This document shows, piece by piece, positions 7,272 to 38,491 of a stretch of 64,000 nucleotides of DNA. The stretch's first letter is position 1. Each line of letters opens with the position of its first letter. The notes under the pieces are model-generated. The model was given only the letters and a program-made list of their open reading frames with translations, made no database searches and was not told the origin of the DNA. The position numbers and the translations under genes are program-made. Source of the stretch: Bryobacteraceae bacterium (GTDB taxonomy: Bacteria; Acidobacteriota; Terriglobia; Bryobacterales; Bryobacteraceae); the NCBI GenBank assembly GCA_035569875.1, contig DATMMD010000175.1, forward strand, positions 7,654 to 71,653. Direction: 5' to 3'.

Positions 7272-7465
7272 CAGTGAGACCGCGAAAAGAAAAGGCCGGC
7301 GAGCATGCTCAACCGGAAGCGAAAGCGATGGGTACCGCTCGAGCTTTTGGAAACGGGGATGCTGCGCTATCTAATCCAGTCCTGAAATCCTTAATCGATA
7401 ACGTCATCGTGCCTGCTCTGATCGAAGAGTGGAAACGATCTCGAGTTCCTACGATGGCAGCATGA
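7268..7465 (+). CDS. Hypothetical small protein (65 aa)
   Basis: This is the C-terminal part of track ORF 6851-7465. It has ATGA overlaps at both ends (7268-7271 and 7462-7465). No motif. Confidence 0.4.
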   Translation: MTVRPRKEKAGEHAQPEAKAMGTARAFGNGDAALSNPVLKSLIDNVIVPALIEEWKRSRVPTMAA

Positions 7466-7803
7466 CGGTGAAAGCAAAACAGAAACTGATTGAGCGAGAA
7501 CTCACGGAAGCCTATTGGCAAGTGTTGGCGGAGCGTTTGGAACTTGGTTCCTTCAGCGTCCAAGATTGCCTCGATGACTTTAAGAAGCTCTATCCTGCTC
7601 TGTTCGAGAAATACATCCACGCCCTAGCAGATGAGGGCATCAATCTGGGTTTTGAGAAACTGACTCGCGATCCGCGACTTTGGCTTTTTCAACAGCGCAA
7701 GAAGAATAACCCCCAGATGTCGGCGAAGACTTTCCTTAGCGACGCTGGGATAACCGGAACGAGTGACAAAGGCTTTAGCGAGTTCATGGATTCTCGCAAA
7801 TGA
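7462..7803 (+). CDS. Hypothetical protein (113 aa), possible recombination directionality or accessory factor
   Basis: ATGA overlaps with both neighbours place it in one coupled unit with the recombinase. No motif. Confidence 0.45.
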   Translation: MTVKAKQKLIERELTEAYWQVLAERLELGSFSVQDCLDDFKKLYPALFEKYIHALADEGINLGFEKLTRDPRLWLFQQRKKNNPQMSAKTFLSDAGITGTSDKGFSEFMDSRK

Positions 7804-9388
7804 TTCTGCGCTGCGCAATCTACGCTCGATACTCTTCAGACCTCCAAAGTCCAATGTCGATCGCGGACCAGGTGCGCATGTGCCGCGAATATGCGGCTCT
7901 ACAGGGTTGGTCGGTGTTGGAAGAATACATTTACAGCGACGCGGAGCTTTCCGGCGCCGGCGCTGATCGTCCAGGCCTCCAGCGACTTCTCAAATGCACC
8001 CATGAACAGCCCCGCAAGTTCGATGTGATTCTGATCGACGATACAAGCCGATTGTCACGCCGGCAGGCTGATCAGAGCAATATCGTCGATCATCTCCGCT
8101 TCGCAGGAATCCGGCTGATCTCAGTAAGCCAAGGAATCGACAGTGGAAGCGACCAGGGCGACGTCCTGCTTACCGTGCATGGGTTAGTCGACAGCCTATA
8201 CATCAAGGAACTCGCGAAGAAAACTCACCGCGGTTTGGAGGGGCGAGCACTGAGTGGCATGCATACTGGCGGCCGTTGTTTCGGATTCCGAAACGAATCG
8301 AGCCCGGATGGCGTACGTCTGGTCATCGACGATCAGGAGGCCTCCATCGTTCGGCGAATCTTCGAAACTTCTGCCTCCGGAATCTCGCTTAAGGGAATCG
8401 CCAGGATGCTCAACGCTGAACGCGTTCCACCACCACGCGCGAGAAAAGGCCGGGAACATCCTACCTGGTGTCCTACCGCCATACGCGCCATGCTGCGAAA
8501 CGAACTCTACCTGGGAAGGATTCTCTGGAATCGTTCGCAGTTCGTTAAACATCCTGGAACGAATAGACGTGTTAAAAGAGCACGCCCTAAGACCGAATGG
8601 CGAACCGCAGAGCGACCCGAGCTGCAGATCATAAGCGACGATCTTTGGCAGCGAGTACAGGAACGCCTGCGAATCGTGAAGGAGTTATTCGGCCGCGCCG
8701 GCGCCGGAATCAACAAAGCCAGCTCGAGCAATTATCTGCTCAGCGGGTTTCTCAAATGCGGTCTATGCAACGCAAACATGATCATCGTAGCGGGCAAGGG
8801 CAGAAAGACGCTCCGGAAATACTACGGTTGCCCGCAGCACTTTAACCGGGGAGCCTGCATCAATGCCCAGACTATCCGCCAAGACGTGATTGAGCGAAAC
8901 TTCTTCTCCCGACTTCAGCGTGAGGTCCTCACCGATGAAGTGCTTGACTACACGACCGGCGAGTTTGTTCGCCGGCTACAGGAGGTTGGGCCGGATGATG
9001 GGGACAGGATCGTCCGTGACCGCAAAAAGGAAATCGAGCGCGAGTTGCAACGTCTGACGGCCGCGATCGCTGAGGCCGGGCATTCCCGGTATCTGATAGA
9101 AGCCGTCAGCGAGCGTGAGCGCGAATTGGAACGGATCGAAGAGAATCTCCTGATCGCCCGCCGGCAGGACCTGGCGGTCTCACTCCATCACAAGGATATT
9201 CGCGGGTGGATTGCGAGCCGCCTATCAGATCTCTGCGAACTCTTGAAGGTGGACACCGTTCGGGCCCGGGCCGAATTGGCGAAACACACCCTCGGTATCC
9301 GTCTCATTCCGGAAATTGATTCGGCCGGCAAGCCTTCCTACTTTGCAGAAGGTGTCTGGGACCTTCTGGGGACAGGTTTACTTTGCGA

Positions 9389-9410
<22 letters not shown>
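7800..9410 (+). CDS. Large serine recombinase (integrase)
   Basis: Resolvase-type N-terminus (AIYARYSSDLQ with the catalytic Ser region). It continues with a recombinase domain, a Cys-rich zinc-ribbon segment (CGLCNANM...YYGCPQH) and a coiled-coil C-terminus. Total 536 aa. Confidence 0.9.
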
Positions 9411-9465
<55 letters not shown>

Positions 9466-9521
9466 TCGCTATGGTAGCGCAACTGCTTCTGCTCGTCAAA
9501 CTCTTTTCCAAGTGCCAGAAA

Positions 9522-9541
9522 AACTCCCTTTAACTCCCTTT
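9522..9541 (+). repeat. Perfect tandem 10-mer AACTCCCTTT x2 at the 3' end of the integrase pseudogene
   Basis: Read directly. It lies between the tRNA 5' end and the integrase stop codon and is a possible recombinase arm-type site. Confidence 0.5.
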
Positions 9542-10657
9542 AGCCCGCCCTGCATTGATCTACGGCGGATTCCTGCATCGCTACGATCATCTGTACCACG
9601 TTGCTGTTGGCCTCCCTTTTTCGCTCGCTGACAACTGTCCCGTAGAGGTTCGTCGTAGTAGTGATGGAGGCGTGACGCATAAGCTCCTTCTGAACCGCAA
9701 CCGATGCCCCCACATCATCCAGCCAACTTCGGTAGGAATGCCTAAAGGTGTGCCAACCAACTTTGCCTTGTATAGCCGCCGCCGCAGCCGCCCTGCGGAT
9801 ATAACGCTTCTGAATCTCCTCCTGGTGGTACGGCCTCCCCGTAACGGGATTTGCAAACAACCAGGCTTCCGCAGTCGGATAGCACCGCTCTCGGTAGAGC
9901 AGCAGCGCCTCCGCTAGAACGGGGTCGATCGGCACACACTCCTGACTGGCTTCGGTCTTCGCGGGGCCAATTCGACCGTGGACGATTCCTCGCTGTATGA
10001 GCAGCGTACCGAGCTCGAAGTCGAAGTCCGACCACTGTAGTCCCACGATCTCACTACATCGCAAGCCGAGGCATCCCGCGATCAGAAACATGGTCCTGTA
10101 GGGATCGGGAGAATACGAAACAAGCGCGCTGAATTCCCCAGGCTCCAAAATTCGCGGTCGCTTCAATCGCTTAGTCCCTCCTTTCACACGAACGTGGGAT
10201 ATCGGATTTCGGTCGAGCAGATCCCACCTCACTGCGCTTTCAAAGAGCACATGCATCAGACCTCGGATGTGCGCCTTCGTTTTGGGGGCCAGGGGGAGGC
10301 CGCTGAGCCACTGCTCTACCGCGACCGCTTTTACACTGGCGAGCGGTGTGTCAGCCCAACGCGGCTTGATGTGGACGTCGAGGTTAGACCGTACGCCGCC
10401 CTGGTTGAATAGCGCTCCGGCATTTCCTCCTCTTCATAGCGGCCGATCAGCGCACCAAACTTTAGATCAGCCGCAGAAACGGCACGGTCCTCGTTTATCT
10501 TCATCAACAGAGCCTGGACTTTTGCCGTTTTCCTCACGGCCGACTTGGTCGGGTATTCAGTGAGCGTCCCGACCGTGACGGCCCTACGCCTTCGTGGATG
10601 CCCCGGTTCGTAATACCGAAGCTCCCAACTTGAATCTCCTTTCTTCCGCGTCTTCAA
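9540..10657 (-). pseudogene. Tyrosine recombinase (phage integrase family), frameshifted
   Basis: The N-terminal ORF 10331-10657 (MKTRKKGDSSWELRYYEPG...) and the catalytic ORF 9540-10256 (...HTFRHSYRSWL...LMRHASITTTTNLYG) are in different frames. The reading ...YGL(N)LDVHIKPRWADTPLASVKAVAVEQW... is restored by a 1-nt shift near 10377-10393. Confidence 0.8.
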
Positions 10658-10910
10658 TAGAAGACTCCGAATTGGTATCGTACTCTCCTAAACATATTGG
10701 TGTCTTTTCATTAGAGGACACGAGTGGCGGCGTTGAGGATACCGCACTCCGCAACCACAAGCCTAGTTCCGTGGCCCTGAATCGCCACAGATCGTCAATT
10801 CTTGTTGCCGGTAGGTTTCCTTCCCGAGCAAGCTTTTGTAAGGTTTTGGGATGTATACCCAGCAAATGTGCGGCCTGTTCGGTCTTGAGTAGCGGTTCAA
10901 AATTTTCCAT
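10584..10910 (-). CDS. Excisionase/AlpA-like helix-turn-helix protein
   Basis: LLKTEQAAHLLGIHPKTLQKLAREGNLPATRIDDLWRFRATELGLWL matches the excisionase-type HTH. An SD-like GGTGA precedes the ATG at 10910. The 3' end overlaps the integrase start. Confidence 0.6.
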   Translation of the reverse strand: MENFEPLLKTEQAAHLLGIHPKTLQKLAREGNLPATRIDDLWRFRATELGLWLRSAVSSTPPLVSSNEKTPICLGEYDTNSESSIEDAEERRFKLGASVLRTGASTKA

Positions 10911-11337
10911 GGTCACCTATTTTGAAAAGCGATATTGCGTTCATTCGTGGTCCAACGACGACGATTGGCTGACTGCAATAGAAAAGCGTTGCCGGAGGAG
11001 TTTATTGAACGAGCCAATCCGGGAAAATGCGAGTGGGGGGCGCCGGGAGCTCTACCGCTCATTGAATTCGATCGGTGCGCCTTTGAACAGCACCGGCGAC
11101 GAGCAACTCCCGGCAGCGCCAAGATCTGATGTCGGCCGACGACGGTCCAGAAGCGTCTCGAATCCATGATTCTGTCCGGCGGGCTGGCTGACACGGAATA
11201 GGGATTATCGAAGAAACGATTCAATGAATAGGAGAAACCAGCCTTTAATCAGCATAGGTCGTGTCGAACTGCCGGTCCAATGTTTTGTTGATACGATTGA
11301 CCCGCCACCTACATCATCGGCGTTATTCCTCGCCAGC

Positions 11338-12018
11338 CTTGATGTTCCATCGCGCGGCGGCTTCATGACGGCGCCTGTGTGGATTCGGGGAATCCTGAGC
11401 GATGAGTATGGAGTCCCGATCACCAGCGCCATCTATCTGAGTGGCGGGGAGGAGGAGCCGGGCCGCGACGAGAAAATCGCGCTCTCGTTAGCGCCTGAGA
11501 TCCGTGTCGAAGCTATTCCGCGCACTAAAACTCTATCGCGAATGATTGAGTCGGGAGAAATTGACGCCCTATACACGGCTCGAGCCCCCTCGACGTTCCA
11601 CAGCGGAGATGGCAGCGTGCGAAGGTTGTTTCCCGACTATCTAACCGTGGAACAAAATTACTACAAGAAGACCGGTATCTTTCCCATCATGCACGTGATT
11701 GCTATTCGGCGAGCCGTCTATGAAAAGAATCCATGAGTCGCGCAGTCATTATACAAGGCATTCCTGATTGCTCAGAAAGAGGCTTATCAGGATTTACACG
11801 AAACGGCCGCGTTGAAGACTATGCTTCCGCGGGCGGTACATCACGTAGAAGAAGTGGAGCGGCTGATGGGAAGCGATTATTGGCCCTATGGGCTGGATTC
11901 AAATGTGCACGTTTTGAATACCTTTCTGCGGTATTCCTATGAGCAAGGACTCTCGAAGCGCCAATTGACTGCGAAAGATCTCTTCGCGAAAGAAACCCTG
12001 GAATCGTTCAAGATTTGA
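11338..12018 (+). pseudogene. 5'-truncated paralog of the 26526-27470 gene (4,5-dihydroxyphthalate-decarboxylase-like / periplasmic-binding-fold family) with an in-frame TGA at 11734-11736
   Basis: Track ORFs 11224-11736 and 11812-12018 are in the same frame. The read-through gives ...AVYEKNP*VAQSLYKAFLIAQKEAYQDLHETAALKTMLP.... Similarity to the intact paralog starts only around TAPVWIRGIL, which matches TTGLWARGVL about 115 aa into the paralog. Confidence 0.7.
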
Positions 12019-12118
12019 GCGTCGTTATGACGAGAACCAGGCCCCGTTACTCGTTTCGGATTTTTTTCCCTTAGTTGACAGTCTCTCAACGTCCTACCTA
12101 TTCTTGGTGATAGTGACA

Positions 12119-13303
12119 ATGCCACGGCTGAGCAATCCCGGCACGCTGCTGCTGAGCGGGATCCTTGCCGCTATGATGCTGCTCGTGCTGTATGCGCAAG
12201 AACACGGGCCCCAGCCGGCTGGTGGCGACATCATTCCCATCCGCCAGGTTTACGATCCGTTCCCGGTTTTCAACGGACTGGCGATCGATCCGGAGAACAA
12301 TCTGGTTGCGATGACGGACGTAAACCGTAAGAGCATTCTGAGCTACTCCCGCATCGCCGAATCCCGCCGCGGAGGAGTTACGGATCCTCAACGCCAAATC
12401 TTCGGGCCGCTCACGAACGTCGGCTTCGTCGCAGGCATCGTATTGGATCCTCAGCACAAGGAAATTCTCGCTGTCAATAACGACATCGAGGATACGCTCA
12501 TCGTACTTCCCTACGACGCACACGGCAACGAGTCGCCCAAGCGAATGCTCTCAGTTCCGCACCAAGCTTGGGGGCTGGCAGTGAGCCGTACGCACGATGA
12601 ACTGGCGATCACGATAGAGCTTCAGGAAGCGGTGGTCATTTATAAAAGAGAGGCGCATAACGTGGAAGCGCCGATGCGCGTGATTCGCGGTCCAAACGCG
12701 GGCCTCGCGGATCCACACGGCATTCTGTGGGATGACCAGCACAACGAAATCACGGTGGCGAATCATGGAAACTACCGGGGCTTGGTGAAAGACACCGGCG
12801 GCGGCTGCGTACCCAACGGCAACGCAGAACCCGAAGCCGGCGCCGTGCTGCCTCCTTCCATCACGACATATTCGGGCGACACCAAGGGAGACGCTAAGCC
12901 CCTTCGTACCATCCAGGGCGATAAAACCAAGTTGGATTTTCCGATGGGCCTCGGCGACGACCCTGCCAACAACGAGTTCGCTGTCGCCAACAACGGCGAC
13001 AACTCCGTGCTGATCTTTTCCCGGACTGCCGCGGGGAATGTAGCGCCTGCACGCGTGATCGCTGGCCCCGAAACAGGTATTAACCGCCCCATGGGCGTGG
13101 CGATCGATACCGTGAACAACGAGCTTTGGGTCTCGAACTTCATTGACCATTCCGCCCTGGTGTTCGACCGGAAAGCGAACGGCAATGCGGCTCCGAAGCG
13201 AATTATACGGACTGCTCCCGCAGGCACGCCGAGCCCCGGATTCGGGAATCCACAGGCAGTCGCGTACGATTCCAAGCGCGGGCAAATCCTGGTCCCCAAT
13301 TGA
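12119..13303 (+). CDS. YVTN/NHL-like beta-propeller repeat protein, N-terminal ORF with a signal anchor. It may continue through the TGA at 13301.
   Basis: Hydrophobic N-terminus (LLLSGILAAMMLLVLYA). Repeated blades of about 45 aa show ...G(N/D)..P.R.I.G......P.G...D....E..V.N. ATG at 12119 is preferred over TTG at 12104. Confidence 0.8.
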   Translation: MPRLSNPGTLLLSGILAAMMLLVLYAQEHGPQPAGGDIIPIRQVYDPFPVFNGLAIDPENNLVAMTDVNRKSILSYSRIAESRRGGVTDPQRQIFGPLTNVGFVAGIVLDPQHKEILAVNNDIEDTLIVLPYDAHGNESPKRMLSVPHQAWGLAVSRTHDELAITIELQEAVVIYKREAHNVEAPMRVIRGPNAGLADPHGILWDDQHNEITVANHGNYRGLVKDTGGGCVPNGNAEPEAGAVLPPSITTYSGDTKGDAKPLRTIQGDKTKLDFPMGLGDDPANNEFAVANNGDNSVLIFSRTAAGNVAPARVIAGPETGINRPMGVAIDTVNNELWVSNFIDHSALVFDRKANGNAAPKRIIRTAPAGTPSPGFGNPQAVAYDSKRGQILVPN

Positions 13304-14179
13304 GTGGCCCAGCCGCGTATTGCGGCCTTCGCCCGGGGGGCGAACGGGACTATGGCTCCAGAAAGAATCATTACCGGCGGCGCGACGAAGATGTCCCGGA
13401 CGGTGCACGGTATCGCTTACGATCCGGTTCAGGACGAGGTCTACGTAACCAACGCGCTGGCCGATGCGGTGCTGGTGTTCCGCGGTGGCGCGGAAGGCCC
13501 TGCGCCCCCCGTCAGGACGATTCAGGGACCTTGTACCGGTATGGAGAATCCGCACGCGATCAGCCTGGATCTGGCGCATCGCGAAATCCTGGTCGCGAGC
13601 TTGAGCGCGAGGTCCATCGCGATATTTCCGATGGAAGGAAACGGCAACGTGACGCCGAAGCGCTACATCAAGGGGCCTAAGACCGGCTTGGGCCACACCG
13701 TCGGTTTGGGGGTCGATCCGGGAACGAATGTCCTGGTCGTCGCGAACGCCGAAGACATCCTGTTCTTTGATCGCCTCGCGTCGGGCGACGTCGCGCCGAT
13801 CGGCCAGATCAAAGGCGAGCACACCGGAATTCGGGATGAACCTTGGGAGCTACAGATCTACAAAGGAAAGATCTTCCTGGCGGCGTCCAACCATTTGCAC
13901 CTCAACCTCTACTCCCAAGTCACGCTCAAGCCCGAATATAGCCACGGCGACGCCAAAATTCCCGACGACCCGTGGCTCAATCCCCAGTTGGGATTCATCG
14001 GCGTCTGGAATGTGCGCGATCGCGGTGACGTGCCGCCTCGCGTGAAGATCGGTGGTCCATTCAGCGAATTGGTGCATCCCACAGGTTTGGCGCTCAATCC
14101 CGTGGACGGTGAGATCTACGTGACCGATAGCATCCGCAACAGCTTGTTCTCGTTCCTGGTCCCCGCGCTCTTGAAGTAG
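13304..14179 (+). CDS. YVTN/NHL-like beta-propeller repeat protein, C-terminal ORF in frame with 12119-13303
   Basis: Same blade motif as the upstream ORF. The only start is the GTG directly after the TGA. There is no SD and no signal peptide. Confidence 0.75.
   Translation: MAQPRIAAFARGANGTMAPERIITGGATKMSRTVHGIAYDPVQDEVYVTNALADAVLVFRGGAEGPAPPVRTIQGPCTGMENPHAISLDLAHREILVASLSARSIAIFPMEGNGNVTPKRYIKGPKTGLGHTVGLGVDPGTNVLVVANAEDILFFDRLASGDVAPIGQIKGEHTGIRDEPWELQIYKGKIFLAASNHLHLNLYSQVTLKPEYSHGDAKIPDDPWLNPQLGFIGVWNVRDRGDVPPRVKIGGPFSELVHPTGLALNPVDGEIYVTDSIRNSLFSFLVPALLK
13312..13344 (+). promoter_or_regulatory. Two stem-loops immediately 3' of the in-frame TGA (candidate SECIS-like or recoding element)
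   Basis: GCCGC-guauu-GCGGC at 13312-13326 and UUCGCC-cgggg-GGCGAA at 13328-13344. Equivalent hairpins sit at the same offsets in the paralog. Confidence 0.35.
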
Positions 14180-14193: not shown

Positions 14194-14225
14194 CTATTTG
14201 ATACCGATCCTATTTGATACCGATC
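14194..14225 (+). repeat. Perfect 16-bp tandem duplication CTATTTGATACCGATC x2
   Basis: Read directly. The second copy (14210-14225) encodes the last residues (IGIK) and the stop of the minus-strand permease. Confidence 0.9.
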
Positions 14226-15652
14226 AGGGGCCAGTAGAGCGGCACAACCAAGAGCAGCAACAGCGAATCCACGAGGCTCATGATCAGGCCGAGCCGGAGA
14301 ACGTCCTTCGCGCGGAAATAATTGTATGCGTACCCGATTACCAGCACCCCGGACTGATACACGAAGATCTTTCCGCCTGAGGAGAATACCCACAGCATGC
14401 CCAGCTTCAGCGGGCTCAAGCCATGGGTGATCGCGACCTGCATCAGCAACGGCATCGAGGTGCCGAGCATGGAAATTTCGCTGGCCAGGAACAGGTGGTA
14501 GAGGAAGCCCGTCCAATACAGCGCAAACGTGGAAAGCAGCTGGTGAGGCAGCAAAGGCTCCAGCCACCCGAAGACAATGTTGGTGAGGACCGCCAAGCCG
14601 CGCGACGCGCTGAGAACCTTGCCCATGCTGACCGCAGCGGCGACAAAGAACAGCTGCAGGAAGTTCAGCTTCCGCATGTCTTGGATGGTCAGGATGCCAG
14701 CGAACGGCAGTACTCCTAACAAGCCGATACCGAGCCCGATCATCGAAGAAGGAATGTGGTGCAGGAAGTCGGTGGCCCAGAGCGCGATCGCCAACAACAT
14801 CAGGGCCATCGATTTCTTTTCCAGCGACGACCACGGACCCGCTTTGCGCAATTCATCCTGCAAGTGTTGTACACCACCAGGTAACGTAGCCACTTCCGGA
14901 GGATAGAGCCACAGCGTCAGCCTCCACGCCACCAGGATCGTGATGATGTCCGAAGGCAGGTACGCCACCAGCCACTGGCTCCATAGCACTTCGACGTGAC
15001 CCACGTTCTCGATGATGCCGCGTCCGGTGATCGCCGCCGCGCCGGCGATGATCGATTTATCGAACACTCCTGCCGTGTAGGTCAAGATGAGGAACATACC
15101 CCGACCGACATTGCTCCCGGGCCCCAACCCAAACGCCTGGATCAGTCCGGTAGCCACTGCGGCCATAACGGTCACGCGCGCCATTCCTGAAGGCACAAGA
15201 AAAGTTAACAAGAAATCCGAGAGGATTAAGGCGAGCAACAGGCGCGAGTAACTGGTACCAATGCGGATTGTGATCAGGTACGCCAGCCGCTTCGCCAGTC
15301 CCGACTTGCTGGCCATGGTGCCGAATAGAATCGCGCCCATCAGAAACCAGGGCGTATCGTCGGCGAATCCACTGAACGCAACGTCGAACTTGACCACACC
15401 GAGCGCCCAGAAGAGATAGCAGCCGATCAGGCCGGTGAGTCCGTGATCCATTACCTCCGTGGCCCACGCCAGGATCATAAACAGCGAGATGGCGATGGCG
15501 TGCTGCGCTTTCGGTTCCAGATGCAAAGGTAGAAACCAAAGCGCGATGGGTGCCGCTATCGACAGCACGGCCTTCCAAACGCTCGGCGAGGCGCTCCTGT
15601 CGAGGGCCGCAGCAGAGGAAGGCGGAGAGATCGTGCCTACGCTATCAGCCAT
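14210..15652 (-). CDS. Anion permease of the ArsB/NhaD superfamily (SLC13/DASS-like)
   Basis: Polytopic membrane protein, about 480 aa from the internal ATG (MADSVG...). The motif style is ...FMILAWATEVMDHGLTGLIG...TPWFLMGAILFG.... The longer track ORF would overlap the aldolase gene. Confidence 0.7.
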   Translation of the reverse strand: MADSVGTISPPSSAAALDRSASPSVWKAVLSIAAPIALWFLPLHLEPKAQHAIAISLFMILAWATEVMDHGLTGLIGCYLFWALGVVKFDVAFSGFADDTPWFLMGAILFGTMASKSGLAKRLAYLITIRIGTSYSRLLLALILSDFLLTFLVPSGMARVTVMAAVATGLIQAFGLGPGSNVGRGMFLILTYTAGVFDKSIIAGAAAITGRGIIENVGHVEVLWSQWLVAYLPSDIITILVAWRLTLWLYPPEVATLPGGVQHLQDELRKAGPWSSLEKKSMALMLLAIALWATDFLHHIPSSMIGLGIGLLGVLPFAGILTIQDMRKLNFLQLFFVAAAVSMGKVLSASRGLAVLTNIVFGWLEPLLPHQLLSTFALYWTGFLYHLFLASEISMLGTSMPLLMQVAITHGLSPLKLGMLWVFSSGGKIFVYQSGVLVIGYAYNYFRAKDVLRLGLIMSLVDSLLLLLVVPLYWPLIGIK

Positions 15653-16391
15653 TGCCGGTCCCCAAGAAGTAATCCTGCAGCATGCGCCAGCGCTCCTCGT
15701 GGATGCTACTGGACTCGACTCCCTTTCGCGCCGCCAGGATGCCCGTTTTGGTTCTGGCTGAAATAACTGGCAGCTTCGCGAGCGAGGCCGCGCGAAGCAT
15801 TGTTTCCGCAACTTTCTCGATCCTGTGAGCGATGACGCACACGTCTGCGATTCCCGGGCCGGCCACGATGCAGCCGTGGTTCTTCAGCAGTACTGCGCCG
15901 AAAACACCAAGCGAGGCCGCCACATCATCGCCCAACTGAGGTGTCGAGATGCTGACCGCGCCGTTGTCAAGCACCGGCAGCTGATCGGTTAACGCGGCGC
16001 AGTCCTGATCGAGCGGCTCGACCGCGATCCCGAGCGCGGCCATCAGAGTCGATGCCGCGGGGTGCGCGTGGAGTACGCAATGGACATCCGGACGAGCGGA
16101 GTAGATGCGCGCGTGAATGGGCCACTCGCGCACGCCGCTCGATTCACCGGGCCGGTCGACACGCACGCCGTTCAAATCGATTACGATCAGGTCTTCCGGC
16201 TCAAGCTTCCACCAGCTTACCGGCCGGGGTTTGATGAGAATGCAAGAATCCCGCAGATTCTCGCTCGGGAGTCTGGCGCTTAGATGCCCACCTAATCCGT
16301 CGCCGACCGCCTTGGCCGCGAACAAAACCTTGCACGCCTTAACCAATTCCTCGCGGAGTTCGGATTCGCCGCGCGCAGGCCCCCGAGTCAA
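15645..16391 (-). CDS. Class II aldolase/adducin-family protein
   Basis: KACKVLFAAKAV.. in the N-terminal region and a metal-binding VHCVLHAHP motif. Tightly packed in an operon. Confidence 0.8.
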   Translation of the reverse strand: MTRGPARGESELREELVKACKVLFAAKAVGDGLGGHLSARLPSENLRDSCILIKPRPVSWWKLEPEDLIVIDLNGVRVDRPGESSGVREWPIHARIYSARPDVHCVLHAHPAASTLMAALGIAVEPLDQDCAALTDQLPVLDNGAVSISTPQLGDDVAASLGVFGAVLLKNHGCIVAGPGIADVCVIAHRIEKVAETMLRAASLAKLPVISARTKTGILAARKGVESSSIHEERWRMLQDYFLGTGNG

Positions 16392-16393
16392 GG

Positions 16394-17680
16394 TCAGACA
16401 TCCGCCTTCATGAGCTCGCGAGCGCCTTCATCGAATTCGATTTCTCGGTTCAACACCAGAGAGCACGAACGAACCCAGTAGGCATCGCCACGATGCGCCG
16501 CTTCGGGCTCACGCCCCTGCTGCAACGCGCGGATCTCCTGCAGCAGCAGGCGGCGCGCGGCGATGATCGCGGTGTCGCTAGTTCCCAGGCGCTCCCGTGT
16601 GCGGTCGACAGTCGCACCCATGCTCTCCTGCAAGGCCTGGTCCTGAGCGGCAAATCCGTGAATTCCGGTCATGCTGATATTGCGTTGGACCTCGCGGTTG
16701 ATTCCGTAGTTGTTGTCCTTATTGCGAAGCGGCCGGAAGGTGATGGGATCGACCTTGGAGTGAACGAAAGTTTCGTTGGCGATCGCGTCGCGATCTTCCT
16801 CGGAGAGCGGGCCCTCGGGATTCCAGCTTATTGTCCAGACCCAGCAAGTTTCGTCGTCCCGTGGAACCCAGCAGTGGCCATGAATAGAGTTGCCCTTTTG
16901 ATACGGAATCATCGTGTGGCTGGGTAGCAGGAACTGGGTCATGCGCCAGTAGTAGGTGTCCTCTTCGGCATTGCGCCGCACGGCGATGATCAAGCCATAT
17001 TCGGTTTTCTTCACCGTGAATCGCGGGGCCTTGTCCAGCAGATGATATTTGGCCCGCAGATTCGAACTGTCCCGCACCTTCGCCACGTAGGAATCCGTCA
17101 CGCGGAACGCATCCACGGAGGCGTGAAGGAAATTGGAATGGCTGGAATCAATGCCGCCCTCAATGGCTTGCAGGTAATTGGTTTCCTGAAATCGCTTGGA
17201 GATGTGGCGGTTCGAGTCCGGCACGCGAGCCCACTCCAGCTTGGGTAGCTCGGGGGCCTGATCCGGCGGACCGAGGTAAGCCCAAATCAGCCCGCCATAC
17301 TCGCGCGTGGGGTAGGCCGTGATCCGGATTTTGTTCTCGAAACCGTACTCCGGGGGCTCATTCGGCATGTCCACGCAGGCGCCGTCGACAGCATACTTCC
17401 AGCCATGGTAAACGCAGCGCAGACCGCACTCTTCATTTCGTCCCCAGAACAGGCTGGCGCGGCGGTGGGGGCAGAACTCATCGATCAGCCCGACACGCCC
17501 GTGCGTATCGCGGAAGGCAATCAGATCTTCGCCCATCAAGCGAACCCGGACAGGGGCACAATCCGGCGTGGGCACCTCGGAGGCGAGCAGGGCCGGCACC
17601 CAATAACGGCGGAAGTATTCTCCGGCAGGCGTGCCAGGATCCGTCCGGGTCAGAAGGTCATTCTCTTCTCTCGACAGCAT
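16394..17680 (-). CDS. Rieske [2Fe-2S] aromatic-ring-hydroxylating oxygenase, alpha subunit (phthalate-family-like)
   Basis: Rieske motif CPHRRASL...LRCVYHGW, with a large catalytic domain following. Confidence 0.85.
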   Translation of the reverse strand: MLSREENDLLTRTDPGTPAGEYFRRYWVPALLASEVPTPDCAPVRVRLMGEDLIAFRDTHGRVGLIDEFCPHRRASLFWGRNEECGLRCVYHGWKYAVDGACVDMPNEPPEYGFENKIRITAYPTREYGGLIWAYLGPPDQAPELPKLEWARVPDSNRHISKRFQETNYLQAIEGGIDSSHSNFLHASVDAFRVTDSYVAKVRDSSNLRAKYHLLDKAPRFTVKKTEYGLIIAVRRNAEEDTYYWRMTQFLLPSHTMIPYQKGNSIHGHCWVPRDDETCWVWTISWNPEGPLSEEDRDAIANETFVHSKVDPITFRPLRNKDNNYGINREVQRNISMTGIHGFAAQDQALQESMGATVDRTRERLGTSDTAIIAARRLLLQEIRALQQGREPEAAHRGDAYWVRSCSLVLNREIEFDEGARELMKADV

Positions 17681-17690
17681 AAGTTCCAGG

Positions 17691-17978
17691 TTACAAAAAG
17701 CTTCGGAGTTTCTCGGCTGCTTCCACAGGACGGCGGTCCGCTACCAGATCATGCGCCATATGGGCTATTCCATGGAGCCGGGCGATCCCTTCGCGCTGCT
17801 TCGAATCAGGCTCATATTTCAAAACGAACCCAGTAATGGACCAGATCGCGTCAAGCTCCGCCTCGCGGTAAACCAGATGTTCAAAATCCACGGAAACTTC
17901 GAGATGCGCGATGATGTTCCGAAGAGTTTCCGGCGAAAAATCCGTCACTGTCACGATGTGTCCTGGGTTCAACTGCAT
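17691..17978 (-). CDS. Hypothetical protein (95 aa)
   Basis: ORF packed between the propeller gene and the Rieske oxygenase gene with 7-10 nt spacers. No motif. Confidence 0.5.
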   Translation of the reverse strand: MQLNPGHIVTVTDFSPETLRNIIAHLEVSVDFEHLVYREAELDAIWSITGFVLKYEPDSKQREGIARLHGIAHMAHDLVADRRPVEAAEKLRSFL

Positions 17979-17985: not shown

Positions 17986-18810
17986 TTAGAAAACCTCGGG
18001 GAAGTGGAAGGTAAGAACCGCGTTCAGCCGCTTGTCGGACACGATCATATTCTTGTTCTTCACATCTAGCGCGATGCCACGAGGCATTCGCAGGATTCCG
18101 TGCGGTCCGCCAATGGTCCACTTGGGGGGCACGTCTCCATTGTCGTTGATACTCCAGACGCCAACATAGGCTTCGTCCGACGACAGCTCAGCGAAGGGAC
18201 CCGGGCCACGGACGCTCACCATGATCTCACCCTTCGACGGATGTACCGCGAATGGGCCGCCAAAGGCATACAAATGACTCTTCGGTCCACCGATCACTGC
18301 TTTGGGCTTCACGTCACCAGAATCGGTGCGGTTGAAAATGAGCAGGCGGACCTGTCCATGCCCGGCGCTTCCGCCGACTATCAGCAAATTATTCACTGGA
18401 TCCACCGCAACGGGCGCGTCGCCATTGAGCATGGTGTCAGGACCCCGGATCTCGCGGATCGGCGCAACATCGCCACTGCCGTCGCGGGGGAACACGAGTA
18501 CCGCGCCATAGCGGGTCGGCACGAAGATCTCGTTGTGGACGGGATCGACATCCAAATGTTCCGGCGCGTCCAGTTGTGTGTGAGGTCCGATAATTACCCG
18601 TGCGGGGGCTTCCTCGCCGTTAGCCGAGCCACGGTATGTGAGGATCGCCTGGCCAAACTGCTGGGGCACCGTAAATTCATCGTGGATGGGGTCATAGGCA
18701 ATGCCGTGCATCGTGCGTCCCAGCAGGCTGCCTTGTCCCTCCACTTTTCTGACTGGCTTTGCTCCGTCCTTCGCCAACCTGGCGAAGACCGCGATCTGCG
18801 GATGGGCCAC
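17986..18810 (-). CDS. YVTN/NHL-like beta-propeller repeat protein, C-terminal ORF in frame with 18811-20166
   Basis: Paralog of 13304-14179. It starts at the GTG directly after the TGA (plus-strand tca at 18811-18813). No SD and no signal peptide. Confidence 0.75.
   Translation of the reverse strand: MAHPQIAVFARLAKDGAKPVRKVEGQGSLLGRTMHGIAYDPIHDEFTVPQQFGQAILTYRGSANGEEAPARVIIGPHTQLDAPEHLDVDPVHNEIFVPTRYGAVLVFPRDGSGDVAPIREIRGPDTMLNGDAPVAVDPVNNLLIVGGSAGHGQVRLLIFNRTDSGDVKPKAVIGGPKSHLYAFGGPFAVHPSKGEIMVSVRGPGPFAELSSDEAYVGVWSINDNGDVPPKWTIGGPHGILRMPRGIALDVKNKNMIVSDKRLNAVLTFHFPEVF
18769..18801 (-). promoter_or_regulatory. Two stem-loops immediately 3' of the in-frame TGA of the second paralog (candidate SECIS-like or recoding element)
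   Basis: On the minus-strand RNA: CCGC-agauc-GCGG (18801-18789) and CUUCGCC-agguu-GGCGAAG (18787-18769). Confidence 0.35.
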
Positions 18811-20166
18811 TCAATTCGGAACCAGAATCTGCTCGCGCTTGGTGTCATAGGCGATCGGATGCGGATTCCCCAATCCCGGCACAGGCTGATTCGGTGGTGC
18901 ACTGCGGACCACACGCAGCGGCGCCACGTCGCCATTAGCATCCGGATTGTAGACGGCTGAGGTGTGATTACCGAAGTTCGCCACCCACAATTCGTTGTTC
19001 TTCTTGTCGAGGAAGATGCCGGTCGGATTACTGACCATGCTCGCTGTTCCTTTGATCACCCGCAACGGAGCAGCATCGCCGGACGCGTTGGCGTCGAACA
19101 CCAGAACCGAGTTCCCGCCGTCGTTCCCGATGAAAAGTTCATTGCGTTCTTCGTCCAGCGACACGCCGGTTGGCCAGTTCATCTGCGTTTGCGGGCCCTG
19201 GATCGTCCGCAAAGGCCGCACGTCGCCTTTCGCGTCCTTCGCATAGACGGTGATGGACGGTGGCCCGATCTTTCCCGAGCCCGGTACGGCATCGTCACGA
19301 TTCAACGGGAACCCTGGTGAACCTTCGCGCTTGCGGTTCCCGGATTGATTCTGGCGCACGCTGTGCGAAGAGCCGTGATTGGTTACAAACAGGAGCCCAC
19401 GCTTGGTGTCGAGCACCATTCCGTGAGGATCGGCGAGTCCCGTATGGTCGCCCTGCACTACTCGCAAAGGAGCTTCCGTTCCCTTGGCCGACTTGTTGTA
19501 AACCACAATCGCGTTGTCGTGTTGAACAGTTAGAAACAACTCCTGTTTTTCTTCGTCCACCGTGATACCGAAGGTGCCGTGCGGGGTGTGGAGCTCGCGG
19601 TCAGGCTTTACGTCTCCGATGGCCTTTCGCGAAAAGATCACCAGTGTGTCGATGGTGTCGTTGTTGACCGCATAAATGTCACCGTTCGCAGGATCGATAT
19701 ACAGCCCGCATTGAAATTCGATTTTCGTATTCAAGCCGCCGATGAGGCGTTTCGGTTCACTGGATTTGTTTGGCGAGGTCTTGACGCCGCGATCATAAAC
19801 CCAGATGTTGAACAAATTCTCGTCGGTCATCACGACTTCATCGTGATTAGAGTCCACCGCTACAGCGCTGTAGGCTGCGTAGGGATCTCGGATCGTGCGC
19901 TCGGGCTTACGCTGGCTCGCGTCCTCGGGAGTCCACGCTCCGCCGGCAGTTCGCGCCTGCATGAGGAGGTTGCGCAACGGCAATTCGCCGGCCATTAAGA
20001 ACAGCCCAGCGGACGCTTCCGGGCGAGCGCAGGCTTCGTCCTCATCCGATGGCAGCGCATCGTACGAAACGAGCCGCGAAGTGGGCCGCGAGTCTCCCGT
20101 AAAGCCCAGCCAGATCATCAGCGACAATCCGATAGGGAGTGAAACGCGGAGAGACTTGCTAATCAC
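18811..20166 (-). CDS. YVTN/NHL-like beta-propeller repeat protein, N-terminal ORF with a signal anchor. It may continue through the TGA.
   Basis: Paralog of 12119-13303. The N-terminal hydrophobic segment is LPIGLSLMIWLGF. It has the same blade motif and ends ...AYDTKREQILVPN. Confidence 0.8.
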   Translation of the reverse strand: MISKSLRVSLPIGLSLMIWLGFTGDSRPTSRLVSYDALPSDEDEACARPEASAGLFLMAGELPLRNLLMQARTAGGAWTPEDASQRKPERTIRDPYAAYSAVAVDSNHDEVVMTDENLFNIWVYDRGVKTSPNKSSEPKRLIGGLNTKIEFQCGLYIDPANGDIYAVNNDTIDTLVIFSRKAIGDVKPDRELHTPHGTFGITVDEEKQELFLTVQHDNAIVVYNKSAKGTEAPLRVVQGDHTGLADPHGMVLDTKRGLLFVTNHGSSHSVRQNQSGNRKREGSPGFPLNRDDAVPGSGKIGPPSITVYAKDAKGDVRPLRTIQGPQTQMNWPTGVSLDEERNELFIGNDGGNSVLVFDANASGDAAPLRVIKGTASMVSNPTGIFLDKKNNELWVANFGNHTSAVYNPDANGDVAPLRVVRSAPPNQPVPGLGNPHPIAYDTKREQILVPN

Positions 20167-20246: not shown

Positions 20247-20714
20247 ATGACCCGGCTCTTCCTAGCCTTTGTTTCGCCAGCGTTAATATGTGTGTTTCTT
20301 TTCGCCCAGCAAAAGCAGTCTCCCCAAGCAACCATCGCGGCTCTCGACAAAATGACCGCTGCAGGCAAGAGTCAAAAGGAACTTGCCCAGTATGTCTTTG
20401 ACAACCACGGTTGCGGCGGCTGTCATAAAGCGGGAGAAGGGGGCAAACTCGGCTTCACGGAGAAAGGCAAACAGCTTAGCAATGGATTCGAAGGATGCAT
20501 CCGAAGCTTGACGGCGATGAATGTGATTGCTCAAGTGCCCGCGAATCAGCGTTCCGCCGATCAGAAAATCGAGGCCCAGCGTTTCCAAGAGTTCGGCTGT
20601 ACGGTATGCCACCAGATCGTGCCTGGCAAGATGGGTTTGACGGCCTTAGGGGCCAAACTCACGCGTATGCACTTGGGCTGCGTGGATGTGGAAAAGACGC
20701 TGGCTTCCAAGTAG
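20247..20714 (+). CDS. Diheme c-type cytochrome with a signal peptide
   Basis: Two CXXCH motifs (CGGCH and CTVCH) and an N-terminal signal sequence. It is divergent from the propeller operon. Confidence 0.8.
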   Translation: MTRLFLAFVSPALICVFLFAQQKQSPQATIAALDKMTAAGKSQKELAQYVFDNHGCGGCHKAGEGGKLGFTEKGKQLSNGFEGCIRSLTAMNVIAQVPANQRSADQKIEAQRFQEFGCTVCHQIVPGKMGLTALGAKLTRMHLGCVDVEKTLASK

Positions 20715-21935: not shown

Positions 21936-24900
21936 TTACCAGAGCAGCTTCAATCCGAATTGAATCTCGCGTTGCGTCGTTGCCGTGTATGTGATCGTCC
22001 CCGCGGTTGGCGACAAAGCACCGGAGGAAAACATGGCGACCACCGGCATCCCAAAATTCGTGTGATTCAACACGTTGAAGAATTCAGCTCGAAGCTCAAC
22101 CTTGATTCTCTCCGTGATGGTCGTGGTCTTGATCAATGACGTGTCAAACTCCACTAGCCCTGGCCCGCTCAGAATGTCCCGGCCGGCGTTGCCGTAAGTT
22201 CCTGCAGGCGGCAAAACAAATGCGGCGGGATTAAACCACTGCGTGCGGTTTCCGGTAACGATCGGACCAGTGAAGTTGGGATTAAAGGAAACGCGATCCG
22301 GGTTTCTAGCATCGCCGTTATTCGACTGGTTGGAACCCACCAGAGGAGTAAAAGGAAAACCGCTTTGCCCTGTGATGATGCCATTCCAGCTCAACCCGCC
22401 AATCAACTTCTCAGTTATCCGGCCGCCATTATTTCCAAAAGGCCGGCCGTGACCAAAGGGCAAAGCATAGCTGAAATTGCCACTCACCTGCTGCGCCGGA
22501 TTAAAGTTCGAGGGACCCCAATCCGCGCGCGGATTTTGAGGAATCATCACCGTCGTAGTCCCAGCGATCCCCTCATTGGCAAGGAAAGAAGAGGAGTGAA
22601 TGTCCAGGCTTTTCGACCAAGTGTAATTGCCCCGGAACTGCAAGCCTTTGCTGAAACGCTGAATGAGGCTGACTTGCAGCGCGTTGTAACTGCTACTGGC
22701 ATTGGCTAGTGTGTATCGAGTATTCGCCAGCGCGTTGTTCGCCCTTACCACGGTACTGGGAAACGGATGACCGATCGTCCCGTTTGCCGTCGCGGTCGGA
22801 GTTACAGTGTTGACGTCTACCGTGTCAGGCAGGTAGTATCCATGTTCCCCTACATAGCCGACGCTGAAAAGCATGTTGGCTGTAATTCCCTGTTCGAGTT
22901 TTAGGGTCCATTCCTCGACCGTCGGCGTTTGCAGGTCGGGCTGCACGCCCGCCGGGGATACCTTTGCACCCGGAAGATTTGCCGTTATCTGAATCGGGAA
23001 AGTAGCAGGGGATGTCTTTGTCCCGATGGAGGGATTAATGTTCAGATTGTTTCCGATCGGGCTGCCATCACAGCACGACCCCATGTAATCAAGCTGGTTA
23101 TAGTAAGTTCCAAACGCTGCATGGATCGCCGTTTTCGAAAGGGGCGCCCATGCCAGCCCGACGCGCGGACCAAAAAGCCACTTCGCGTTATTCACGGTGT
23201 AGGGAGAAGTTCCAAGCATGGGCTGAGTCTGCAAACATTGGGCCGTGCCAGGGGAGCAACCCGCAGTCCCAAAAATGTAATTGGAGGCTTCGCCATTTGG
23301 TGAGTTCCAGCCGTTGTTAAACTCATGCCGCAGTCCCAGGCTAAGAGTGAGATTGGAGCGCAGCTGAATGGCATCCTGCACATACCACGCGCCTGCCAAC
23401 TGGCGCCAACCAATCTCGGCTGGATTCAGTACTGCCACAATCTGGCTGGCTTGGCCTTGCAAAAATGCCGCCACCCCGGAAAAGGTGGCCACACCGTACC
23501 GTTGATTGGCAGCGTCATCGTTGGCCTGAATCCGTTGGAGCCATACTCCCGCGGTGATGGTGTGCTTGCCCTTCGTGATCTGGACATCATCGGTGAAGGT
23601 AAATAGATTCCTGGCGACTTTCTCAAATTGCTGGGACCCGTTGCTGCCCGCGATGGACCATGCGCCCACGCTGTTAAAGCTCGCCGAGCCGACCGAAATG
23701 TCTCCCGCCGGTTGCCCGGGAACAAACGATGTGTCCGCGGGTGTCACCGGCGGCGAGGCCACCAGATCCCAGTGAGCGCGCGAAAAACCGAAGCGGGCGT
23801 TATTTAGAATCGAAGGAGAAAATAGGTGCGTTTCCTGTACACTCGCAATCTGCGCGCGTAGAATGCTCGATGTTTGCGTCAGCGGATTGGCTCCGGGCAA
23901 GAGATTCCGGCCGTCGTCGATCGTGTAAATTCCGGAGAGCATATCTCTGGGGGAAAAATTATGATCGAGCCGAACGTTCCCGAAATCTTCCCGAACGCTC
24001 TGGACGGGATTACTAAACGCCTCCGCGACTCCGCCGCCCAGGTCGGGCCCATTGGGAGTCGGCCACAGAGCGAAATACGGCGCGATCCCCGGCGCCACCG
24101 GAATCGGTTTGCCATTCGACCCCAGTAACGTTCCGCTCCGCGCACTGGCGTCCGGCACAAATGTCACATCGGACAAGCTAAGGCTCTGCCGGAAGCCTTC
24201 ATAATTACCGAAAAGAAAGGTCTTGTCTTTCTTAAGCGGTCCTCCCAAGGCCGCGCCAAATTGATTGCGTTTGAACGGTGGATTTGTGGATTGGGCAAAG
24301 AAGTTACGCGCGTCCAAAACATCGTTCCTCAAGAATTCGAACAGATCTCCGTGGAACTGATTCGTGCCGGACATAGTCACAACGCTGATTTGTCCCCCCG
24401 GCCGTTTTCCGTATTCAGCACCATACGCATCCTCCAGTACGTTAAACTCGCGTACCGCATCGACCCCTAACAATAGACCACTGACGCCGCCAGGCATGAC
24501 GTCGGCAGTAGAGACGCCGGTGTACTCAATGCCATTCATCAAGAAGAGATTGAAGTCTTCGCGATTTCCGGAAACGGAAAAGTTGAAGCCTTGTCCCTTT
24601 CCCGTGCTCGTGGTCGATTGATTCGAGGTCATATTCGTTGTGCTGGGATTCAGAGTGATGAGCGTGTCCCAACTGCGGCCATTCAGAGGAAGGTCCTTTA
24701 CCTGTTGTTCGTTGACTACCCCGGCGACGGATGCCGTCGTTGTATTCACCAGCGGGACCTCCTCGGTGACAGTCACTACTTGTCGAACGGCGCCGACGTC
24801 CATACGCATGTTCACGACCGCCTGTTGCCCGACCACGAGCGTTATCCCCGTTCTAACAACCGAAGTGAACCCTGGCTTCTCTGCTCTGACTTCGTACTGC

Positions 24901-25157
24901 CCCACGGGCAGCGAGAGTGCGGCGTATTGGCCAGAGCTGTCAGTGACGATATTACGAGTCTGCCCGGTCTCCGGGCTCGCAACCGTAACTGTCACGTTGG
25001 GGACGGATGCGCCGGTGGAATCCTGGACAGTGCCAGTGATCGAGGCGGTCGGTTGCTGGCCGCGAAGATGGCTCGTGCCCAAAGCCAGAAACAATACCAT
25101 CAGGGTTGCGTCCACAAAGCGGACTCTCCGAATTTCAACCCTTCGCAAATCGTTCAT
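21936..25157 (-). CDS. TonB-dependent receptor with an N-terminal carboxypeptidase-regulatory-like domain
   Basis: ITGTVQDSTGASVPNVTVTV...GQYEVRAEKPGF is a CarboxypepD_reg-type domain. A long beta-barrel follows, ending in ...FGLKLLW. Confidence 0.85.
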   Translation of the reverse strand: MNDLRRVEIRRVRFVDATLMVLFLALGTSHLRGQQPTASITGTVQDSTGASVPNVTVTVASPETGQTRNIVTDSSGQYAALSLPVGQYEVRAEKPGFTSVVRTGITLVVGQQAVVNMRMDVGAVRQVVTVTEEVPLVNTTTASVAGVVNEQQVKDLPLNGRSWDTLITLNPSTTNMTSNQSTTSTGKGQGFNFSVSGNREDFNLFLMNGIEYTGVSTADVMPGGVSGLLLGVDAVREFNVLEDAYGAEYGKRPGGQISVVTMSGTNQFHGDLFEFLRNDVLDARNFFAQSTNPPFKRNQFGAALGGPLKKDKTFLFGNYEGFRQSLSLSDVTFVPDASARSGTLLGSNGKPIPVAPGIAPYFALWPTPNGPDLGGGVAEAFSNPVQSVREDFGNVRLDHNFSPRDMLSGIYTIDDGRNLLPGANPLTQTSSILRAQIASVQETHLFSPSILNNARFGFSRAHWDLVASPPVTPADTSFVPGQPAGDISVGSASFNSVGAWSIAGSNGSQQFEKVARNLFTFTDDVQITKGKHTITAGVWLQRIQANDDAANQRYGVATFSGVAAFLQGQASQIVAVLNPAEIGWRQLAGAWYVQDAIQLRSNLTLSLGLRHEFNNGWNSPNGEASNYIFGTAGCSPGTAQCLQTQPMLGTSPYTVNNAKWLFGPRVGLAWAPLSKTAIHAAFGTYYNQLDYMGSCCDGSPIGNNLNINPSIGTKTSPATFPIQITANLPGAKVSPAGVQPDLQTPTVEEWTLKLEQGITANMLFSVGYVGEHGYYLPDTVDVNTVTPTATANGTIGHPFPSTVVRANNALANTRYTLANASSSYNALQVSLIQRFSKGLQFRGNYTWSKSLDIHSSSFLANEGIAGTTTVMIPQNPRADWGPSNFNPAQQVSGNFSYALPFGHGRPFGNNGGRITEKLIGGLSWNGIITGQSGFPFTPLVGSNQSNNGDARNPDRVSFNPNFTGPIVTGNRTQWFNPAAFVLPPAGTYGNAGRDILSGPGLVEFDTSLIKTTTITERIKVELRAEFFNVLNHTNFGMPVVAMFSSGALSPTAGTITYTATTQREIQFGLKLLW

Positions 25158-38468: not shown

Positions 38469-38491
38469 TGACGATATAATGGCCCCTGCAC

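Follow-up and report, generated by a model that had tools for sequence, protein, structure and literature searches.

Why do two related genes on one bacterial contig carry an in-frame stop codon at the same place in the same peptide? The question is raised by a 64,000-nucleotide (nt) stretch of a Bryobacteraceae metagenome-assembled genome (MAG; GenBank assembly GCA_035569875.1, contig DATMMD010000175.1, positions 7,654 to 71,653), which is called the window below and is numbered from its first letter. The window contains two inverted paralogs, paralog 2 (17986..20166, minus strand) and paralog 1 (12104..14179, plus strand), and each is divided by a TGA into two open reading frames (ORFs) that share one frame. 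The TGA very probably encodes selenocysteine (Sec) and is served by an insertion signal in the same RNA; the genes belong to a large family of exported β-propeller proteins of soil Acidobacteriota. This reading is preferred because the column is occupied only by UGA or Cys codons, the hairpin behind it is under RNA-level constraint and covaries, this hairpin fits the model of the bacterial Sec insertion sequence (bSECIS), and orthologs are linked to selC, selB, selD and selA. On sequence grounds, each of the inverted paralogs is predicted to be one gene for an exported tandem β-propeller selenoprotein of ~690-730 residues.

Paralog 2 is read here as a single selenoprotein gene of 726 codons, and the TGA is the only internal stop of its reading frame. 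A preliminary description of this DNA had reported that the minus-strand ORFs 18811-20166 and 17986-18810 are in frame and parted only by TGA (tca on the plus strand at 18811-18813), and this arrangement is present. The gene starts with GTG at 20166, with AGGAGA lying 8 nt upstream, and stops with TAA at 17988-17986. In GenBank it is annotated as two hypothetical proteins, HXA67037.1 and HXA67036.1. The putative Sec codon of paralog 2 (UGA, 18811..18813, minus strand) corresponds to residue 452 in the context VPN-U-VAHPQIA, and the peptide around the stop reads ...GNPHPIAYDTKREQILVPN*VAHPQIAVFARLAKDG.... Paralog 1, the second selenoprotein gene of the same family, consists of the ORFs 12104-13303 and 13304-14179; its likely start is ATG at 12119, and it is without the N-terminal segment that carries a conserved Cys. 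Its putative Sec codon (UGA, 13301..13303, plus strand) stands in the context VPN-U-VAQPRIA, with ...GNPQAVAYDSKRGQILVPN*VAQPRIAAFARGANG... as the surrounding peptide, so the matching TGA that had been reported for the other paralog was found as well. The two proteins share 38% identity overall, in agreement with the earlier impression that they are only moderately similar. The 14 nt that were said to be shared around both stops, AATTGAGTGGCCCA, have exactly two matches in the window, both at the TGA sites (mean of 0.01 in shuffled sequences). A six-frame scan of the 64 kb revealed no further credible in-frame TGA, and both halves of the split proteins retain coding-type conservation.

Homologs were searched with a protein query in which Cys was put in place of the stop, and 2338 were returned. 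Among the best 120 of these, ~90 are proteins of 404-492 residues that each end exactly at ...LVPN; ~28 others are full-length proteins (724-771 residues) that read VPN-C-VAHP, with the Cys nearly invariant. The single exception among the full-length homologs is P0006, which has a gap across the junction; all the others have Cys at the TGA column. An exhaustive profile-free search with the N-terminal half collected 783 clusters (50% identity, E <= 1e-30), including many generic NHL-repeat proteins and many others that end exactly at the Sec position. At the DNA level, 155 genes from public genomes and metagenomes were compared using a search pattern that allowed any residue at this column. The codon was TGA in 130 genes and TGC or TGT in 25: the window and 75 loci from GTDB species genomes contributed 69 TGA, 9 TGC and 0 TGT, while 80 metagenome loci and two Cys orthologs contributed 61 TGA, 15 TGC and 1 TGT. 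Neither TAA, TAG nor any other codon outside TGA and Cys was found among the 155 genes. A column restricted to TGA and Cys codons is, as far as sequence comparison can tell, the classic Sec/Cys signature. The preliminary description had proposed to see whether the stop, Cys or Sec is conserved in orthologs, and these counts answer that in favour of the exchange; ordinary two-gene layouts with a variable junction were also looked for in the orthologs, and none was found.

The hosts are mostly Acidobacteriota (Bryobacterales, Terriglobia, Vicinamibacterales, Solibacteraceae and Sulfopaludibacter), and a few host MAGs are labelled Binatia, Verrucomicrobiia, Planctomycetota or Deltaproteobacteria. 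Several genomes contain more than one paralog of the TGA type. For example, OZ240237.1 and CBDCTS01 have five loci each, and locus L020 has three such paralogs in tandem.

The preliminary description had pointed to two hairpins in the minus-strand RNA of paralog 2, CCGC-agauc-GCGG at 18801-18789 (hairpin 1) and CUUCGCC-agguu-GGCGAAG at 18787-18769 (hairpin 2), with counterparts in the other copy. Both were confirmed, at the same offsets in the two copies, which align without gaps; hairpin 2 is one pair longer than previously given, with 8 bp at 18788-18768. According to the bSECIS model (the Zhang and Gladyshev consensus, PMC13188914 Fig. 2A), the apical loop has 3-9 nt and reads N1-G-[G|U]-N-N2, the upper stem has 4-16 bp, the distance from UGA to the loop is 16-37 nt, and the minimum free energy (MFE) is <= -7.5 kcal/mol. 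Hairpin 2 agrees with the model in all four respects (A-G-G-Y-U loop, 8 bp, 30 nt, and MFE of -12.5 and -13.3 kcal/mol in the two paralogs), and it is taken as the SECIS core. In paralog 2 (18768..18788, minus strand), the stem is formed by 18788-18781 with 18775-18768, and the loop A-GGU-U occupies 18780-18776. This core begins 22 nt past the UGA, has a UGA-to-loop spacing of 30 nt, and folds with the MFE of -12.5 kcal/mol (z = -3.6). In paralog 1 (13326..13346, plus strand; MFE of -13.3 kcal/mol), the stem is CCUUCGCC / GGCGAACG with one C-C mismatch, and the loop is C-GGG-G at 13334-13338. In Rfam, neither the window (at gathering cut-offs) nor 18700-18850 (with permissive settings) matched a known cis-element; the only matches were chance ones with E > 4.

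Selection on the RNA was examined in an ungapped alignment of 69 Sec-type sequences (A2), which is numbered from the T of TGA. Columns 26-33 pair with columns 39-46, the loop at 34-38 reads AGGYU, and the helix was also recovered by RNAalifold. When 118 unique genes with TGA at the column (Sec genes) were inspected, all 8 pairs could form in 88, 7 of 8 in 24, and 6 of 8 in 6; slid registers of the stem are only 36-64% paired. Among 21 unique genes with a Cys codon (Cys genes), the complete stem occurs once only, as a relic. The mean hairpin MFE is -10.7 kcal/mol in Sec genes versus -4.3 kcal/mol in Cys genes. The strongest evidence of pairing comes from columns 27 and 45, where the wobble base of codon +8 pairs with the wobble base of codon +14 as G-C (20 sequences), A-U (17), U-A (8) and C-G (5). 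The covariation of this pair has a permutation p < 1e-5, taking the related sequences as independent, and 0 of 500 shuffles reach the observed score. Where codon +14 encodes Asp, it is GAC if the wobble base of codon +8 is G and GAT if that base is A; judged from the sequences, such a coupling is beyond what protein selection can produce.

Codon usage in the hairpin points in the same direction. The Arg codon of the loop is AGG in 106 of 115 Sec genes (92%) against a same-gene background of 6%, and in 1 of 16 Cys genes. Compared with the same-gene background, codon +9 is TTC in 99% of Sec genes (69%), codon +10 is GCC in 98% (40%), and codon +13 is GCG in 100% (38%). Codon +12 may encode L, M, V, S, T, A or G, yet it ends in G in 116 of 118 Sec genes; in Cys genes this third base is mixed. 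For example, the peptide FARSADGNA is encoded in both L097 (Sec) and L080 (Cys), as TTCGCC-AGGTC-GGCGGAC and TTCGCG-CGCAG-CGCCGAC, respectively. Thus the codons are fixed in Sec genes and relaxed in Cys genes that encode the same peptide, which answers the earlier question whether the stems are kept independently of the amino acids. The preliminary description had seen no compensatory substitutions and had considered selection on RNA and on protein inseparable; the pair 27-45 and the synonymous fixation in Sec genes lift this caveat. The codon constraint runs from +1 and fades past about +16. Of the 15 codons before the UGA, only the one at -2 shows strong over-use (of CCC), and the other biases are far weaker than those downstream. 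The Pro at -2 (18819-18817 in the window) is encoded by CCC in 62% of Sec genes versus 31% in the background (p = 2e-11, again counting relatives as independent), and the codon after the UGA is GTG in 85% versus 40%. These two preferences may mean that the immediate codon context, apart from the hairpins, affects how the UGA is decoded.

A covariance model of the region (R1) was built from the genome loci and run on unseen sequences. It scored 60-88 bits on metagenome Sec loci and 25-57 bits on Cys loci. Within the window, R1 matches only 18748-18813 (81.5 bits, paralog 2) and 13301-13366 (60.2 bits, paralog 1). Two Cys orthologs that are 71% identical to paralog 2, L076 (TGC) and L077 (TGT), are each one base away from TGA. 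The SECIS hairpin is still present in both (positions 9375-9440 in each locus), and the loop AGG has changed to CGA in L077. From their sequences, these two genes appear to have changed from Sec to Cys recently and to keep a relic of the hairpin that is now decaying.

Hairpin 1 lies between the UGA and the core, as CCGC-agauc-GCGG in paralog 2 (18789..18801, minus strand) and as CCGC-guauu-GCGG in paralog 1 (13313..13325, plus strand). Its codons are also biased in Sec genes: CCG is used in 99%, ATT in 82% (background 30%) and GCG in 98% (background 38%); the same GCG codon is used in about half of the Cys genes. No covariation was detected between columns 13-16 and 22-25. As a SelB-binding SECIS core, hairpin 1 was rejected, since it shows no covariation and is mostly kept in Cys genes. 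It does not fit the bSECIS consensus either, with a loop AGAUU at 13 nt from the UGA. Hairpin 1 is probably an accessory (or lower) part of the element, under synonymous constraint in Sec genes. In the preliminary description, the GGU in the loop of hairpin 2 was likened to the apex of the Escherichia coli fdhF SECIS, and hairpin 2 is the one that fits the bacterial consensus.

The Sec machinery was found next to family members in other genomes. L002, a Terriglobia MAG locus (CAWJHX010000002.1, 1-14166), contains an ortholog with 81% identity; its two paralogs lie side by side in convergent orientation, only ~30 nt apart (8169-8200). A tRNA-Sec was predicted there at 166-257 by ARAGORN and matched Rfam RF01852 (72 bits, E = 8e-15). 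SelB is encoded at 294-2246, SelD at 10364-11656 and SelA at 11436-12902; the selD is of the Cys type (GGGCGCK). The order of the locus is tRNA-Sec, selB, a transglutaminase-like gene, a Vgb-lyase-like propeller gene, paralog 2, paralog 1, selD and selA. The paralogs are placed between selC-selB and selD-selA, and so the selenoprotein genes sit inside the sel cluster in this genome. In the Planctomycetota MAG locus L032, moreover, selA-selB come right after a family member.

The protein is a repeat protein of the propeller type. Pfam NHL (PF01436) matches both halves (E = 9.5e-11 and 5.7e-7), with scores of 41.6, 30.0 and 29.7 bits against a cut-off of 20. The SMP-30/gluconolactonase/LRE model (PF08450) matches partially (27.7 bits against a cut-off of 26.3, 89 residues), and SGL, lactonase and arylesterase are weak Pfam matches. 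No specific NCBIfam model was found for either half, only sub-threshold generic matches. The AlphaFold2 model of P0001, a 71%-identical Cys ortholog, has 12 four-stranded blades (predicted local distance difference test score, pLDDT, 85.8; predicted template modelling score, pTM, 0.82), and the protein is accordingly predicted by the model to be a tandem 6+6 NHL-type propeller. In this model, the Cys that matches Sec is located in blade 7, at the turn that leads from strand 453-458 to strand 464-469. This blade would be cut in two by the UGA and neither half is a complete domain, which argues against two independent products. The blades share the motif V-A-N/D-x-x-N-x-x-I-x-V-F; by blade alignment, the Sec position follows the V-A-N/D part, in the loop between the second and third strands. 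In propellers, this loop would be on the ligand-binding face. Foldseek against the PDB and a PDB profile search returned only generic propellers (LRP YWTD, TRIM NHL and WD40 tandems), with no functional lead.

By eye, and from helix 16-35 of the model, the N-terminus resembles a signal peptide or a membrane anchor. Disorder is predicted for residues 26-86, a segment with an invariant Cys (C46 in paralog 2) that 117 of 120 homologs share. In paralog 2, residues ~35-90 (window ~20060-19900, minus strand) have this Cys in an acidic (D/E)x(E/A)C context, followed by LPLRxxLxQxR and DASQRKPER. The Cys-containing tail is common to the Sec and Cys forms and is missing from paralog 1. Mature paralog 2 has only C46, C153 and U452, and the Sec and the invariant tail Cys are the sole conserved residues capable of redox chemistry. 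H248, H401, H487, D246 and N168-D170 are invariant His, Asp and Asn positions.

Other explanations of the TGA should be weighed against these data. The two ORFs might be separate genes that are coupled by termination and reinitiation at UGAGUG, with the hairpins serving the coupling or the stability of the mRNA. Gene callers and GenBank do report two ORFs, and the GTG that directly follows most of the TGA codons makes reinitiation formally possible. Such coupling would not explain why the stop is never TAA or TAG in 130 genes, or why fused full-length homologs have Cys at exactly this column, including the 71%-identical orthologs that are one base off. With the junction inside one blade, the match of the hairpin to the bSECIS consensus and the linkage of orthologs to sel genes, we regard two genes as a most improbable solution. 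Programmed readthrough independent of Sec, in which the hairpin would help a near-cognate tRNA (Trp, Cys or Arg) and no selenium would be used, is also very unlikely. Structures downstream of a stop can promote readthrough, and the window itself contains no Sec machinery; but the homologs have Cys alone at the column, the pattern of Sec/Cys exchange, and the loop fits the SelB-type consensus (G-G/U at the first loop positions, 30 nt spacing). The sel genes that flank the orthologs in L002 and a family member in L032 also speak for Sec rather than for a near-cognate residue.

It is next to impossible that the TGA is a nonsense mutation, the mark of a pseudogene, an assembly error or the result of a genome-wide reassignment of TGA. 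MAG-derived sequences can carry errors; yet the TGA is found in both paralogs of the window and recurs in 128 further genes from independent assemblies, which bears out the earlier opinion that a recent nonsense mutation or a sequencing error is unlikely. The coding-type conservation of both halves also stands against decay. Reassignment was rejected, as TGA is the ordinary stop of 11 of the 29 Pfam-supported genes in the window, and therefore the genetic code is standard.

The Sec reading has its own difficulties, and the following points count against it. Neither sel genes nor a tRNA-Sec were found in the 64-kb window (ARAGORN gave tRNA-Met only; Pfam was run on ~40 ORFs), a span too small to inform on the Sec machinery of the genome, and the presence of sel genes in the source MAG is assumed by analogy with its relatives. 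The GTG after the UGA is the start codon that reinitiation would use. The sequences are related, and the binomial and permutation p-values overstate their independence. Strong covariation is limited to a single stem pair; the six inner pairs are near-invariant and are neutral either way. Moreover, when single sequences are folded, the 60-nt region gains no stability over shuffled controls (z = -0.95 and -0.55). Such single-sequence folds are undiscriminating, and so the proof of the structure is comparative and not thermodynamic. The function of the protein is guesswork; Foldseek gives only generic tandem propellers.

The scheme of Sec insertion is established for bacteria, and we infer that it applies to these genes. 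In paralog 2, the ribosome would arrive at the UGA (18813-18811) with the hairpin 22-43 nt downstream, where the 8-bp stem and the A-GGY-U loop would present GG or GU. By analogy, SelB-GTP carrying Sec-tRNA(Sec) would bind this hairpin. SelB, competing with release factor 2, would then deliver selenocysteine, and the ribosome would go on to translate the second propeller.

The genomic context of the two genes might help to explain their role. Downstream of paralog 2, the minus strand encodes a 95-residue ORF (17691-17978), a Rieske/LigXa-like oxygenase (16394-17680), a class II aldolase (15645-16391) and a DASS Na/sulfate-type symporter (14210-15811). The gaps between paralog 2, the 95-residue ORF, the oxygenase and the aldolase are about 10 nt or less, and paralog 1 converges on the block; the block at 14210..17978 is a probable operon. 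As called, the symporter ORF runs into the aldolase gene, and a more internal start is therefore probable for the symporter. This four-gene block between the paralogs also occurs in L001 and L003, with the same layout in L003, and is absent in L002. On the plus strand, divergent from paralog 2 and 81 nt away, is a gene for a dihaem c-type cytochrome of 155 residues (20247..20714) with a signal peptide and the motifs CGGCH and CTVCH; its homolog from L075 gave a sub-threshold match to Pfam FixO. The dihaem cytochrome c is a candidate electron-transfer partner of the propeller protein. A TonB-dependent-receptor-like outer membrane protein with CarboxypepD_reg and outer membrane β-barrel domains is encoded at 21936..25157 (minus strand).

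Neighbours were also counted over about 150 loci. The TonB-dependent-receptor-like protein is the commonest (39 loci) and is often encoded 0-140 nt upstream on the same strand. The DASS symporter was found in 12 loci, and the dihaem cytochrome c and a UbiD-like decarboxylase in 10 each. In Vicinamibacterales-type loci, SCO1/SenC (13 loci) and an HMA-like CPTC protein (16 loci), the latter a lipoprotein-like protein of 160-180 residues with the motif IDG(I/L)TCPTC, are encoded upstream of the family gene. Loci with both of them upstream are L045, L049, L059, L079, L082-L085, L090-L092 and L136, and they include Sec and Cys forms. These neighbours suggest that copper may be delivered to the propeller protein.

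Our best guess, made with low confidence, is that the protein is a periplasmic oxidoreductase with Sec as the catalytic nucleophile or a metal ligand. The redox role in the periplasm, possibly metal-dependent, is inferred from the genomic context, namely the dihaem cytochrome c, the TonB-type receptors, and the SCO1/SenC and HMA-like proteins. A larger proposal, which we find rather doubtful though worth stating, is that this is the first β-propeller selenoenzyme. In that case Sec, possibly with the tail Cys, would form a catalytic or metal (e.g. copper) centre, electrons would pass to the dihaem cytochrome c, the substrates would be imported through TonB-type receptors, and the family, with its five or more Sec paralogs per genome and its occasional place within the sel cluster, could be the main reason that soil Acidobacteriota keep the Sec machinery.

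Some of these features are reminiscent of known systems. SELENBP1/MtoX methanethiol oxidase is a Cu-dependent β-propeller with SCO1/SenC and a haem protein encoded nearby; SELENBP1 does not contain Sec. By analogy, the present family may be compared to it as an exported propeller for which some loci have SCO1/SenC, the HMA-like CPTC protein and the dihaem cytochrome c; however, there is no sequence relationship, Pfam SBP56 has no match in the family protein, and the likeness is one of context only. Other NHL propellers (PF01436; SMP-30/gluconolactonase/LRE, arylesterase and YncE-type) have the NHL repeats and the blade motif in common with the family, whereas the family differs from them in its tandem 6+6 arrangement and in the Sec or Cys in the turn of blade 7. 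The RNA element is similar to the SECIS of E. coli fdhF in that the hairpin lies in the coding sequence just past the UGA and has a small loop with G then G/U, closed by N1-N2. It differs in its unrelated sequence, in the extra constrained short hairpin between the UGA and the core, and in having no Rfam model.

A catalogue of May 2026 lists 119 prokaryotic selenoprotein families and subfamilies (PMC13188914 Table 1). No NHL, β-propeller or lactonase-like family and no VPN-U-VAHP motif is found in that table. Nor is an NHL or propeller selenoprotein mentioned in deep-Sep, BSepDB or two earlier surveys, as far as their main texts go, and literature searches for such a protein gave nothing. The propeller selenoprotein family thus appears to be uncatalogued; the recoding mechanism itself is canonical. 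Like the catalogued families, it has one Sec per protein and Cys homologs, and annotation often misses or splits its Sec form. Unlike them, it has no UxxC or CxxU motif, and its fold is a tandem propeller and not thioredoxin-like. Some of the catalogued families are also extracytoplasmic and non-thioredoxin, such as the FCYXU-type TonB-dependent receptor, the UshA-like proteins and the multihaem cytochrome ExtKL (PMC13188914).

The split annotation, seen in HXA67037.1/HXA67036.1 and in dozens of fragments of 430-490 residues that end at ...LVPN, means that the selenium use of one of the most abundant soil phyla is under-counted. With this family, the selenoproteome gains an extracytoplasmic fold that is not thioredoxin-like. 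Its SECIS is well defined, and natural changes from Sec to Cys can be seen in which the element has decayed to different degrees. With two TGA-type paralogs in the window and five or more in individual genomes, it also represents a paralog expansion in a dominant soil phylum. The covariance model R1 together with the VPN-U-VAHP motif can be used directly for genome re-annotation.

Other parts of the window were also inspected. The region 37131-42143 encodes a transporter of the major facilitator superfamily (MFS), an amidohydrolase_2 protein, a tannase/feruloyl esterase and a MetE-like protein (Meth_synt_2), and it adjoins a second TonB-type outer membrane protein (42145-45849). The wider window, with tannase, amidohydrolases, MFS transporters and a TonB-type outer membrane protein, suggests uptake and catabolism of plant-derived aromatic (phenolic) compounds. 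Just upstream of the paralog locus are a large serine recombinase (7800-9410) and a fragment of a phage-type integrase (9540-10256), and a tRNA-Met (9389-9465, minus strand) overlaps the 3' end of the recombinase gene. The stretch 292-7465 contains long ORFs without a Pfam match, one of them of 1123 residues. The region 292-10256 may be the edge of a mobile element.

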